A stretch of DNA of 64,000 nucleotides. Origin: Eledone cirrhosa. Taxonomy: Eukaryota. Position numbers and translations under genes: made by a program. The stretch's first letter is position 1; every line of letters starts with the position of its first letter. Below are positions 33,647-52,620 of this stretch, piece by piece. The notes beneath the pieces are model-generated. The model saw only the letters and a list, made by a program, of their open reading frames with translations, had not been told where the DNA came from and made no database searches. The stretch lies in contig OZ024743.1 in assembly GCA_964016885.1 (NCBI GenBank), forward strand, positions 369,892,001 to 369,956,000, read 5' to 3'.

Positions 33647-34130
33647 ATACCCTTCTGAAAGATGGTTGAACGTTCGAAAGTATATACTTTCCTTATGAAA
33701 ATTAACGGCTGAGCAGCCTAATTTGCATATCGAGTGAGTTCAGTCGGCCAGGCGCACCGAAAACGATAAGTTGAAATAGGATGAAACGAAATTTCATTTC
33801 TCACTCTTAGTACGGCACTTACTTAAATGTAAGTATGTATGTATACGTACATACATGTATGTATACAGACGTACAGTAGTATGCATATATATATATATAT
33901 ATATATATATATATATATATATATATATATATATATATATATATATATATATATATATATATATATACACATATATACATACAGGTACACATATATATAT
34001 GTACGTATCAGTTTAGCGGACGTTTATTATAACGCCCGCTTTGTCCGTTTGTAAACAAACGGACAGCCTGATTTATGCCGTACGGTGTTAAGGCAACCAC
34101 GTCACCTTTTTGTTCAACACTGACACAGGA

Positions 34131-34173
34131 ACGATGTACTAGTTTCAAGCTTCTTAGCTATCATCAGCACCGT
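34131..34173 (-). ncRNA. Minimal type I hammerhead ribozyme, family A (tandem copy)
   Basis: Identical to 33604-33646 and 527 nt away. Confidence 0.85.
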
Positions 34174-34703
34174 ATACCCTTCTGAAAGATGGTTGAACGT
34201 TCGAAAGTATATACTTTCCTTATGAAAATTAACGGCTGAGCAGCCTAATTTGCATATCGAGTGAGTTCAGTCGGCCAGGCGCACCGAAAACGATAAGTTG
34301 AAATAGGATGAAACGAAATTTCATTTCTCACTCTTAGTACGGCACTTACTTAAATGTAAGTATGTATGTATACGTACATACATGTATGTATACAGACGTA
34401 CAGTAGTATGCATATATATATATATATATATATATATATATATATATATATATATATATATATATATATATATATATATATATATATATATATATATATA
34501 TATATATATATATATATACACATATATACATACAGGTACACATATATATATGTACGTATTTCGTTTCATCCTATTTCAACTTATCGATTTCGGTGCGCCT
34601 GACCGACTGAACTCACTCGATATGCAAATTAGGCTGCTCAGCCGTTAATTTTCATAAGGAAAGTATATACTTTCGAACGTTCAACCATCTGGCAGAAGGG
34701 TAT

Positions 34704-34746
34704 ACGGTGCTGATGATAGCTAAGAAGCTTGAAACTAGTACATCGT
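34704..34746 (+). ncRNA. Minimal type I hammerhead ribozyme, family A (inverted copy)
   Basis: acggtgCTGATGAtagctaagaagcttGAAActagTAcatcgt. Confidence 0.85.
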
Positions 34747-35148
34747 TCCTGTGTCAGTGTTGAACAAAAAGGTGACGTGGTTGCCTTAACACCGTACGGC
34801 ATAAATCAGGCTGTCCGTTTGTTTACAAACGGACAAAGCGGGCGTTATAATAAACGTCCGCTAAACTGATACGTACATATATATATGTGTACCTGTATGT
34901 ATATATGTGTATATATATATATATATATATATATATGTATATATGTGTATATATATATATATATATATATATATATATATATATATGTATATATATATAT
35001 ATATATATATATATATATATATATATATATATATATATATGCATACTACTGTACGTCTGTATACATATATGTATGTACGTATACATACATACTTACATAT
35101 ATATATATATATATATATATATATATATATATATATATATATATATAT

Positions 35149-35545
35149 CATCATCATCATCATCACCGTTTTACATCCTTTCTTCCACGCTAGCATGGGT
35201 TAGACGTGTTGTCCTGTTGTGGGCAGTGTCCAGTTGGCTGACCTTGTCTTGCTCATACGGGAACTGATTCTGGCTTGATCTCTACAGCTGGATACTCTTC
35301 CTAACACCAACCTCATTTACAGTGAGTGCTGGGTGCATTTTTTCCATGGCGCCCACTTTACAGTGTGGGCTGGGTGCTTTTTTGCCGTGGCACCTCCACG
35401 ACCACTTTGCAGTGGGAGGGTGTGGGGCCATATTGTCTATATGCTTCAGCTTCGGCTTGTACCCGTGGGAAGTCTGGTCTTCTGTATTACTGCGTTATAC
35501 CAGAGGACACAGTCGTGTATCATCGCCCTTGAGAGGTGCAGTTGG
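35149..35545 (-). mobile_element. RTE LINE 3' end
   Basis: (CAT)n tail and a 3' UTR matching 6200-6580. Confidence 0.88.
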
Positions 35546-36783
35546 CTTTTAAATATATATATATATATATATATATATATATATATATATATATATATAT
35601 ATATATATATATATATTGAACTCACAGCCTTTCGATTTATCTATCTATGTAAGGTTAGTTACAAAATATCAGATAAGGAATATATTTACCTACATGTATA
35701 TCATGAGCCGTTGTCAAAAGCAATGAGAATTTTATTCAAAATCAATAGTAAATTGAGTTCTATGACCTTATTTGGAGGTAGCTGAAGAACAAACCAATCA
35801 AATGGTTTTATGCCATATGATGTTAAGATGAAATATAACTCACTTTAGTTGGGGTCATGACCCTTTGAAAGGAATGGTTGAATGGTGTTAAACATAGAAT
35901 TACTATAAAGAACCTATGAGGAAAAAGGGATTGTTATATTGATAGTGGAATGTAGATGGTGGAGTGACGTTTAAAAAGGAATGTAAAAATTAAATGTTGA
36001 GTTGTGTTGTATGGAATTTTTAGGTGAATATAAAATATAGAGATAACTAGGATGAATATAGATAGGTAAAGTAATGGTCATAACAAGGAAGGATAGTATA
36101 TTAAAAGATGAAAATTATAATAAGATAATAAAATATAATAATATAATAATATAATATAATGTAATATAATATAGTACAGTATGGTACATTGTATATAGTA
36201 TAATATAGCGTATGATGCATCAAAAAATATAAAATAGTAAATATTTTCAAGTGTGTCTATGTGTAAGTAATCAAACTCAGATAAATGCATGTTGACAAAT
36301 AGTCAAAACGCATAATTTTATTAGATCACAAAAGTACATATATTCACATATATAGATAGAGATGTAATTACATTGATACTCCATTAAAAACATGCATACG
36401 CATACATAGATATAAACATATACATACACATACATACACGCACACAAACATATATACACACTTATACATACATATATACATGTACACACACATACATGTA
36501 CATACACATATACACACACATACACATATACACACATATATATATATATACATATATATATATTCTCTTATCATACATACATACATAGATACATGTATAC
36601 CCATGCAATTACAGGTGGTTATATACCTTGATGCCCTTAGTCAGTAACGCATGAATCTATGGAAGCTAAACAATTAAAAGGTTAAAAAATAAAAAAATAA
36701 ACAGGAAGGCGTATAATTAGGGGAAGGGGATACTAATAAATGGTACGTTATATAGAATTATAGTGAGTTACTATTTAGAATGT

Positions 36784-50186: not shown

Positions 50187-50520
50187 GAGGCACATGGCTT
50201 AGTGGTTAGAGCGTTGGCCTTGCAATCGAAAGGTTGTGAGTTCAATTCTCAGACCGGGTGATGTGTTGTTTCCTTGAGCAAGACACTTTATTTCACATTG
50301 TTCCAGTTTACTCAGCTGTAGAAAGGAGATGATAGGGGTCCATATCTTTCCACTGCAAAGTGGCCGTGGAGGTGCCACGGCAAAAAAGCACCCAGCACTC
50401 ACTGTAAATGAGGTTAGTGTTAGGAAGGGCATCCAGCTGTAGAAATCAAGCCAGAATCAGTTCCCGTCCCACCCTCGCAAGCAAGGAAAAAGCGGACGTA
50501 AAATGAAATGATGATGATGA
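50187..50520 (+). mobile_element. tRNA-derived SINE with CORE/V-like centre and RTE-derived tail
   Basis: A box TGGCTTAGTGG, B box GAGTTCAATTC, CCTTGAGCAAGACACTT, then a 3' part nearly identical to the RTE 3' UTR at 47940-48160 with (GAT)n. Confidence 0.8.
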
Positions 50521-50656
50521 TATATATATATATATATATATATATATATATATATATACATCCTCGCCCACTGCAAAGTGGTCGTGGAGGTGTCACGAAA
50601 AAAAAAAAGCACCCAGCACTCACTATAAATGAGGTTGGTGTTAAGAACATCCAGCT

Positions 50657-50870
50657 GTTGGTGGGGGTTGTGGGGTTGGTGGTGGTTGTGGTGTTGGAGG
50701 TTGTGGTGTTGGTGGAGGTTGTGGTGTTGGTGGGGGCTGTGGTGCTTGTAGTGTTGGTGGGGTTTGTGGTGGTGGTGGTGGTGGTAGGGGCTGTGGTGGT
50801 GGTGGTGGTCGTGGTGGTAGGGGCCGCGGTGGTGGTGGTGGTGGTGGGGGGGGGGGGGGGGGGGGGGGGG
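50657..50870 (+). repeat. (GGT)n-rich tract ending in a poly-G run
   Basis: Visible directly in the sequence. Confidence 0.9.
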
Positions 50871-50904
50871 TCATGTACCAACCTGTCCCTGGTAAGCAGT
50901 ACAG

Positions 50905-51623
50905 TTAACCACATATCTATGTGTATGGTAAACGCCTTGGAGTGGTTGATCAGTTTGTCTACCTGGGAAGCACTGTCAATCGATACAGCAATATTGATAA
51001 TGAAAATACACTCAGGATTAGGAAAGCAAGTGATTCTTTCGGAAAGCTAGAAAGAAGCCTCTGGTATCAGCAAGACATATGCAAGAAGACAAAGGTAAAG
51101 GTGTACAAGGCATGTGTGCTCTCTTCTCTCCTTGAAAGACGTTGACATCTCTGCTTATACATGGGAAAGTGTATGTGCTGATCGTAATAAATGGAGAAAA
51201 ACTGTACATGAGGGGAAAGTTACTTTTGAAGCATCTCAAATGGCATACGAGAAAGTAAAAAGGGATGTGAGGAAAGGCATTATTGTTGCATTTCCAGAGA
51301 GTGAAAGTCCTCCTATAGCACTAACATGCAGCGTCTGTGCGAGACTCTGCCTCAGCAAAGCTTGACTCGAAAGTCATCTTTGCTGTCATAAAGTCAGACC
51401 ATTGGTTGACTACCAGGCTGCTATCGAAGATACTGCTCATCATACATGTCAAGTACGTGGAAGAGAGTGTAGATCAGCAGGAGGGCTCAAACGACATGCA
51501 AAAGTACATGAAATCTAACCACACCCAGCTACTGACAGTGAATGTTTTGGTTGCCAACTCTGTGCAAGACATTTTAGATCATTGGCTGGGCTAAAAAGCC
51601 ACTTTCGATTGCAGCACCATTAA
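50905..51623 (+). mobile_element. BovB-like RTE 3' fragment with C-terminal C2H2 zinc fingers
   Basis: VDQFVYLGS...RIRKASDSFGKL...TKVKVYKACVLSSLL, then CSVCARLCLSKA*LESH, CQVRGRECRSAGGLKRHAKVH and CQLCARHFRSLAGLKSHFRLQH. Confidence 0.75.
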
Positions 51624-51720
51624 TTATTAATATATATGTGTGTGTATATGTATGTGTGTGTGTGTATGTATATCTATATGTGTATATATATATATATATA
51701 TATATATATATATATATATA

Positions 51721-52620
51721 AACGGAAAAAATGAAACGAAATTTCATTTCCCACTCTTAGTACGGCTGTTACTTAAATATAAGTATGTATACGTACATAC
51801 ATATATGTATACAGACGTACAGTAGTATATATATATATATACATACATGCACACACATATATATATATGTACGTATGGATTCACCGAACATTTATTATAA
51901 TGCTCGGTGTGTTTGTAAACAAACATCCGGTATTAAGCCGTAGTGTCCAGCAACCATCGTTGCTCGTTTGTTCAACACTGACAAAGGAACGCTGTACTAG
52001 CTTCAAGCTTATTAGCTATCGGCAGCAACGTATACCTTCCTGCGAAGATTGTTGAACGTATATACTTACCTTATGCATGTTAACGGCTGAGTAGCCCAAT
52101 TTGCATATCGAGTGGGTTAATCGGCCGGGTGCTCCGAAAATGATAAACGGAAAAAATGAAACGAAATTTCATTTCCCACTCTTAGTACGGCTGTTACTTA
52201 AATATAAGTATGTATACTAAGAGTGGGAAATGAAATTTCGTTTCATTTTTTCGTTTATCGTTTTCGGTGCACCCGGCCGTTTAACCCACTCGATATGCAA
52301 ATTGGGCTACTCAGCTGTTAACATACATAAGGTAAGTATATACGTTCAACAATCTGGCAGGAAGGTATATGTTGCTGACGATAGCTAATAAGCTTGAAAC
52401 TAGTACAGCGTTCCTTTATATGTGTTGAACAAACGAGCAACGATGGTTGCTGGACACTACGGATTAATACCGGATGTTTGTTTATAAACACACCGAGCAT
52501 TATAATAAATGTTCGGTGAATCCATACGTACATATCTATATATGTGCATGTATGTATATATATATATAAATACTACTGTACGTCTGTATACATATATGTA
52601 TGTACATGTACATACTTATA
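51721..52620 (-). mobile_element. Family A hammerhead repeat, insertion 3 (425-bp unit, partial tandem copy and inverted copy)
   Basis: Unit 51721-52145, partial copy to about 52215, inverted copy about 52214-52620. HHR at 51989-52031 (-) has a mutated core (CTGCCGA/GAAG). HHR at 52369-52411 (+) is intact (CTGACGA/GAAA/GTA). Confidence 0.88.

Follow-up and report, generated by a model that had tools for sequence, protein, structure and literature searches.

The sequence analyzed here is a 64,000-nucleotide stretch of the Eledone cirrhosa genome (GenBank assembly GCA_964016885.1, contig OZ024743.1, positions 369,892,001 to 369,956,000 of the forward strand), hereafter called the window, in which three insertions of a tandem repeat (family A) combine a type I hammerhead ribozyme with an upstream octamer, ATGCAAAT (Table 1). 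Each insertion consists of a tandem arm and an inverted arm that point outward, and no open reading frame (ORF) of at least 150 amino acids (aa) was found in any of the three. The minus-strand arm of insertion 1 is the only arm in the window with two hammerheads in tandem, one monomer length (527 nt) apart. The octamer letters were confirmed at all seven places named in the original prediction (four on the minus strand and three on the plus strand), always on the strand of the hammerhead, and the predicted gap of 65 to 75 nt agreed with the 67 to 75 nt measured from the octamer end to stem I; from octamer start to CUGA, the distance was 88 nt in five copies and 80 and 81 nt in the other two. 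In total, the window contained 10 octamers against 5.3 expected, a number reached in 1 of 100 shuffles. The statement that neighboring bases differ was not borne out: in the alignment of the seven copies, an invariant block of 17 nt encloses the octamer, 263 of the 661 columns do not vary, and a longer invariant block (22 nt) occurs at another place; thus, the window copies alone do not single the octamer out. Nor do the seven copies count as independent evidence, since they belong to three insertions, each with tandem and inverted arms.

Table 1. Retrozyme-like insertions of family A and their predicted features in the window
Feature	Position	Strand	Remarks
Insertion 1, tandem arm	33289..34559	-	Subfamily A1 (~2.4 units, 527-bp period); outer end in (TA)n; ends approximate
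Insertion 1, inverted arm	34560..35097	+	~1 unit, outer end in (TA)n; ends approximate
Predicted promoter module	34208..34256	-	12-nt box (octamer 34255-34248), TCAGC at +16, TATA at +42
Type I hammerhead	34132..34172	-	Predicted cut after 34137
Predicted cut-to-cut monomer, 527 nt	33610..34136	-	Would contain the next promoter module
Predicted promoter module	33681..33729	-	Octamer 33728-33721
Type I hammerhead	33605..33645	-	Predicted cut after 33610
Predicted promoter module	34621..34669	+	Octamer 34622-34629
Type I hammerhead	34705..34745	+	Predicted cut after 34740
Insertion 2, tandem arm	45912..46545	-	~1.5 units of subfamily A2; ends approximate
Predicted promoter module	46248..46296	-	Octamer 46295-46288
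Type I hammerhead, one stem II mismatch	46172..46212	-	Predicted cut after 46177
Insertion 2, inverted arm	46560..46988	+	Ends approximate
Predicted promoter module	46660..46708	+	Octamer 46661-46668
Type I hammerhead	46744..46784	+	Predicted cut after 46779
Insertion 3, tandem arm	51718..52217	-	~1.2 units of subfamily A3; ends approximate
Predicted promoter module	52059..52107	-	Octamer 52106-52099
Hammerhead with two core changes (copy at 52025), likely inactive	51990..52030	-	
Insertion 3, inverted arm	52215..52624	+	Ends approximate
Predicted promoter module	52294..52342	+	Octamer 52295-52302
Type I hammerhead	52370..52410	+	Predicted cut after 52405

Each unit carries one type I hammerhead with a palindromic stem III of two pairs and a stem I with a long extension. 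Stems I to III were paired in 23 to 25 of 25 loci, except for a mismatch at the base of stem II, and one stem I pair was G-U in 11 of these loci and U-G in another 11. An Rfam scan of the window returned no family at gathering score, hammerhead included, while the hammerhead pattern gave 39,184 exact matches in the whole genome (3.0 Gb), compared with 0 for the reversed control. Unit periods ranged from 422 to 538 bp, arrays of a second family (family B) reached about 30 units, and monomers were 66 to 71% paired as predicted circles, with z values of -7 to -15 relative to 30 crude pair-block shuffles. Judged by its sequence, the repeat is a match to the non-long terminal repeat (non-LTR) retrozymes, having short noncoding tandem units, a type I hammerhead, and strong self-pairing, with cleavage and circles being predicted. 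It was also found, as contigs, in two sequencing runs of unknown kind that are uninformative on starts or strand.

Conservation of the octamer was assessed in 32 loci picked by the hammerhead alone, 25 of which reach 10 nt or more beyond the octamer site on its 5' side, the other seven being cut shorter. The octamer was exact in 20 of these 25 loci, so that its presence at every ribozyme, as first claimed, was an overstatement. In one A3 array with nine hammerheads (L117), all seven full units read ATGCATAT at this site, and this array is a mutated box amplified within one insertion. Family B, which was likewise found by the hammerhead alone and is 69% identical to A3, carried the octamer at a distance of 100 nt upstream of CUGA in 9 of the 10 loci whose hammerhead was scored. 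Conservation of the octamer within the repeat is real but modest.

The repeat was then set beside the promoters of the host U1, U2, U4, U5, U6, U6atac, RNase P, and MRP loci. The host U6-class box is a 12-nt sequence with the octamer as its core, TATGCAAAT(T/G)AG, whose form across the host genes is TATG(C/G)(A/T)AAT(T/G)AG. Its octamer stood at -76 to -78 and was followed by TATA at -30 in five of five cases (the two U6 genes with the best scores, the tandem cluster of U6 genes, the top U6atac match, and the sole MRP match). Among the 11 copies examined in the U6 cluster, 5 had the box in place and 6 had it displaced to -270, the latter (L079, L080, and L082 to L085) carrying an insertion of about 190 bp at the TATA region. 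Of the 27 U6 and 6 U6atac matches, 14 and 5, respectively, lacked the box and look like processed copies. For genes of RNA polymerase II (Pol II), 18 representative U1/U2/U4/U5 promoters of 67 loci were compared, the rest being mostly near-duplicates; none of the 18 had the box at a fixed place within 3 mismatches, the only hits being two stray matches at -108 and -110. All 18 shared YC(A/T)G(T/C) at -55 to -58 (found in 23 of 360 control windows), with AATTA 32 to 34 nt above this core and a TATA-like stretch near -30. Moreover, a distal motif at approximately -255 to -290 was common to host U1, U2, U6, and RNase P and was unlike the octamer in sequence. Since the box stands at -76 to -78 in U6-class genes only and a separate distal motif exists, the octamer in this genome is a proximal U6-class element. 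The original prediction had taken it for a distal element of the vertebrate small nuclear RNA (snRNA) type and had suggested comparison with host U1, U2, and U6 promoters; the distal assignment was rejected for this genome, and the comparison tied the box to the U6 class and not to the U1/U2 class. Upstream of the RNase P RNA gene (L129), a U1/U2-type ATCAGT core and two distal motifs were observed without a U6-class box, and this sequence suggests Pol II-type transcription of that gene, unlike MRP.

A matrix built from the five host boxes placed its best site at the octamer in all five units tested. Four units scored 17.1 to 17.9 bits, within the range of the host boxes (15.6 to 17.9), and 0 of 200 shuffles scored as high; the mutated array scored 10.9 bits, a value matched by 11 of 200 shuffles. 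In the whole genome, the box-plus-TATA pattern gave 2,855 matches compared with 162 for the reversed control, and a hammerhead core lay 80 to 110 nt downstream in 22 of the first 30 matches, compared with 20 of 1,050 control windows. The matches with a hammerhead fall into further families (D to H), and the order of box, TATA, and hammerhead is constant across the sister families. The full box was found in none of 30 minimal (Penelope-type) hammerheads, of which two had two-mismatch matches, one of these with an exact octamer, and 20 of 21 non-family-A hammerhead-like matches in the 464 kb around the window had no box nearby; being largely missing from other hammerhead repeats, the box is not general to hammerheads in this genome. 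Because the host box is shared ahead of the predicted hammerhead in tens of thousands of repeats, these repeats likely carry their own promoter. Based on these sequence comparisons, we assign a probability of about 0.68 to the reading that box and TATA form an internal snRNA-type promoter inside each unit of a hammerhead repeat for which copying by enzymes of the Penelope type is likely. The proposal that promoter and ribozyme form one module thus holds at the level of sequence, in the box match, the TATA, and the sister families, while the distal-octamer analogy on which it drew does not.

Several observations weigh against an internal promoter. Box-to-TATA spacing, counted from the octamer start, is 42 nt in A and about 43 nt in B, D, E, G, and H, compared with 46 to 48 nt in host genes; family F, with 47 nt, lies within the host range. 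The host distal motif was not detected within 3 mismatches in four of five units, the fifth having two 3-mismatch matches. Per-column conservation, which the original prediction had expected to set the octamer apart, did so only weakly within family A, where its mean of 0.975 compares with a median of 0.93 and places it 36th of 230 8-mers, although many of the higher ranks belong to the hammerhead, i.e., the selection motif itself. The 12-nt box is among the longest blocks shared between A and B, level with one or two others of 12 nt, but at 69% identity this length is close to chance expectation. Families D to H were found via the motif, which makes their box and TATA conservation circular and limits their evidence to the hammerhead coupling and the columns outside the search pattern. 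In addition, predicted RNA hairpins include both the box and TATA, the octamer and its partner arm are otherwise equally conserved, and the 5' junctions of insertions gave no clear peak at the predicted start. As a map of start sites, these junctions were rejected, with four starts at -14 to -20 amid wide scatter and with peaks at 0 and approximately 160 that were artifacts of the query and of TA repeats.

Two RNA polymerases could serve such a promoter. In all seven window copies, TCAGC follows the octamer start by 16 nt and precedes TATA by 26 nt, and the spacing of YCAG to TATA in the repeats (26 to 27 nt) resembles that in 17 of 18 host Pol II promoters (25 to 29 nt). Columns +16 to +20 were kept in six to nine of nine family representatives, although they had not been selected for. 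Host U6-class genes scored at most 0.9 bits for the U1/U2-like core. Telling against this resemblance, the core is weak in the repeats, with 3.4 to 5.0 bits in family A (rank 3 to 9 of ~850 to 1,050 sites) and -4.6 to 7.7 bits at +16 across families (host, 5.8 to 13.7 bits), and the AATTAA upstream of it is missing (-0.7 to -5.2 bits; host, 4.6 to 10.6 bits). T-runs inside the unit comprise T6 in A2 and A3, two T5 in B, and only T4 in the window copies of A1. Judged by these motifs, family A is not a plain U6 copy. As a separate observation, members of family F (L209, L210, and L284 to L288) have T5 to T8 runs shortly past the hammerhead and YCA(G/A) 26 nt before TATA, and two copies of family G (L214 and L289) have an additional octamer approximately 30 to 45 nt upstream of the box and a decayed hammerhead. 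RNA polymerase III (Pol III) is expected to stop at T5 to T6 runs. Because the RNA must pass such runs to carry the promoter, and because the geometry around TATA is U1/U2-like, we lean slightly toward Pol II (about three to two). In insects, the choice of polymerase is reported to hinge on a few bases of the proximal element (PMC1761439).

Within this framework, it is possible, and we put it forward only tentatively, that a whole retrozyme clade in this animal, comprising at least seven families, has built a hybrid snRNA promoter of its own, in which a U6-class box sits half a turn nearer to a U1/U2-like core and TATA, Pol II reads through the T-runs, and the promoter is packaged in circular RNA. 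A plain U6-type Pol III promoter, itself one form of the internal promoter, would let a promoter-bearing RNA arise only by read-through of the T-run close to the unit end, and we regard it as rather unlikely. It would explain the restriction of the box to host U6-class genes (five of five against 0 of 18), the TATA, the host-like spacing of family F, and the terminator-like T-run that in A and B precedes the next box by 35 to 50 nt; however, the spacing is 4 to 5 nt short in six of seven families, and T5 to T6 runs would be expected to terminate the RNA short of the following promoter, a sequence that the element has to transmit. Moreover, TATA-like sequences also occur in host U1/U2/U4/U5 promoters, so that TATA does not select Pol III in this genome.

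Explanations in which the octamer is not a core promoter element fit the data less well. The octamer might be kept for RNA reasons, as a hairpin arm in the paired circle or an RNA-binding site, or be inherited from an ancestral capture, with transcription supplied by host read-through; we consider this improbable. Such an explanation accords with the strong folding of monomers as predicted circles, with the octamer forming, in A and B, the 5' arm of a predicted hairpin whose downstream partner is conserved, with the modest rank of the octamer within A, and with the missing distal motif and shifted spacing described above. However, no octamer pair was changed on both sides at the subfamily level, in contrast to the G-U/U-G exchange in hammerhead stem I, and the two subfamily-level changes at octamer pairs both lay on the partner arm, each breaking its pair without compensation on the octamer side. 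This pattern in the modeled hairpin favors constraint on sequence over constraint on structure. Furthermore, other families fold the region with a different partner yet keep box and TATA, and structure leaves the exact match to host U6-class boxes unexplained. Still less probable, and in our view very unlikely, is that the box is a putative POU-factor site acting as an enhancer or other regulatory input, together with an inverted octamer-like sequence located about 30 nt farther along. The octamer is exact, its partner arm is a degenerate inverted octamer (14.2 bits in family B), and the extended box may resemble POU binding preferences; nevertheless, the box keeps a constant spacing and orientation relative to TATA and hammerhead in every family and a constant position (-77) in host genes, which suits a core element better than an enhancer.

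The arrangement of the insertions suggests how an internal promoter could be propagated. Unit sequence occurred on both strands in 16 of 26 loci, and 3' ends clustered at two sites about 50 nt apart, running into (TA)n, while 5' ends were scattered around the unit. The repeats are likely spread by Penelope-type retrotransposons. Penelope-like protein matches were found in 9 of 82 loci when the window element was the only query, a density similar to background. Four of the 82 loci (L012, L038, L056, and L057/58) had a 5'-truncated Penelope-like reverse transcriptase (RT) fragment downstream of a family A piece, on the same strand and within about 250 bp, an adjacency only suggestive of possible template switching. 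L012 shows a direct junction between repeat and Penelope fragment, and L056 has such fragments on both sides. In the window itself, a frameshifted element at 36787 to 39920 on the minus strand gave a subthreshold GIY-YIG match (E value of 0.0011), and its RT pieces returned no Pfam match; we take it to be Penelope-like from its sequence motifs and the GIY-YIG match. A hammerhead-like motif with a long stem II lies in an inverted-repeat region at ~39810 to 39730, without an octamer box.

In the proposed cycle, transcription would start ~30 nt past TATA, 8 to 16 nt before the hammerhead core. The RNA would run through the promoter of the next unit and, in arrays with two hammerheads, be cut at both, releasing a monomer that contains the promoter sequence and is likely circularized. 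A Penelope-type enzyme primed at (TA)n could then reverse-transcribe around this monomer, and such copying would yield insertions of up to a few units that are able to carry the whole promoter. An upstream-type promoter can be inherited only via tandem or circular RNA, as proposed here.

Newt satellite 2, a hammerhead repeat said to have been characterized by Coats, Zhang and Epstein in 1994, reportedly has a promoter of vertebrate layout, with a distal octamer plus a proximal sequence element. Its internal snRNA-type promoter was reported as Pol II (cited in PMC2220036). In contrast, the octamer described here is proximal, matches the host U6-class box, and is followed by TATA. The type 3 Pol III promoters of host U6, U6atac, and MRP share the 12-nt box and downstream TATA with the repeat, whereas the repeat has shorter spacing (except in family F), no distal motif, an extra YCAG core, and its promoter inside the unit. 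A schistosome hammerhead satellite (Ferbeyre 1998, cited in PMC2220036) and the TRIMp3 elements Cassandra, Helenus, and Ajax (PMC10886601) are likewise nonautonomous with small-RNA-gene promoters, although the latter differ in using gene-internal tRNA/5S promoters and LTR machinery.

Metazoan non-LTR retrozymes of coral, mussel, and axolotl (Cervera and de la Pena 2020, PMC7229834; Li, Clavereau and Pollet 2026, bioRxiv 10.64898/2026.07.22.740005) share with the present repeat a low GC content, copy numbers in the tens of thousands, and a proposed Penelope-type mobilization. In both, the noncoding tandem units measure a few hundred bp, carry one type I hammerhead each, and are predicted to form highly paired circles; the mismatch at the stem II base is U-U, as in axolotl HHR_Amex2. 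Unlike them, the repeat described here measures 420 to 530 bp and forms mostly dispersed insertions of 1 to 2.5 units with inverted arms in (TA)n. Retrozyme circles are reported to be abundant in the animal tissues examined (PMC7229834), and the 2026 preprint argues that retrozymes are nonautonomous Penelope derivatives. In the text available from these two sources, a retrozyme promoter is described in neither, "promoter" denoting only T7 in the former and having 0 uses in the latter. Penelope-like elements and their nonautonomous forms (Craig et al. 2021, PMC8557442) show comparable partial tandems, an inverted 5'-truncated copy, a one-sided tail, (TA)n targets, and a promoter in the terminal repeat, while the repeat differs in having no ORF and a tail of about 50 nt versus 30 to 40 nt. 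No autonomous partner sharing the repeat sequence was identified among the 82 loci searched with the window Penelope-like element alone.

Retrozymes, and an snRNA promoter in a hammerhead repeat of newt, are already known. Neither the literature listings nor the consulted portions of the two retrozyme papers reported a promoter that matches the U6-class box of the host itself across several retrozyme families. Whereas the driver of retrozyme transcription is left undescribed in those portions (PMC7229834 and Li et al. 2026), the present analysis provides a predicted promoter and start site, a defined polymerase question, and host genes as controls. It also points to tandem or circular RNA as a route for inheriting an upstream-type promoter, which is normally lost on retrotransposition. 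Tens of thousands of outward-facing copies could influence adjacent genes, and the host U6-class and U1/U2-class promoter motifs defined here are useful for guide-RNA expression. If the hybrid-promoter reading were true, then, together with newt satellite 2, capture of snRNA promoters would be a repeated, independent solution for the transcription of animal retrozymes.

Other elements were also observed in the window. A head-to-head inverted repeat in (TA)n at 27370 to 28330 carries CUGAUGA...GAAA motifs at 27519 (minus strand) and 28062 (plus strand), without the octamer box and with an unconvincing stem I. On the plus strand, 40461 to 45650 contains two long open frames of 572 and 1156 aa, the second with endonuclease, RT, and zf-RVT domains, and is apparently an intact long interspersed nuclear element (LINE) of the L1/Tx1 type, a decayed relative of which lies at ~52800 to 57700. 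A Mariner-type transposase occupies 23744 to 25041 on the minus strand, and many decayed LINE copies with an RT domain, which we take to be RTE-like, are spread over 1800 to 9000, 21100 to 33200, and 46990 to 48100.

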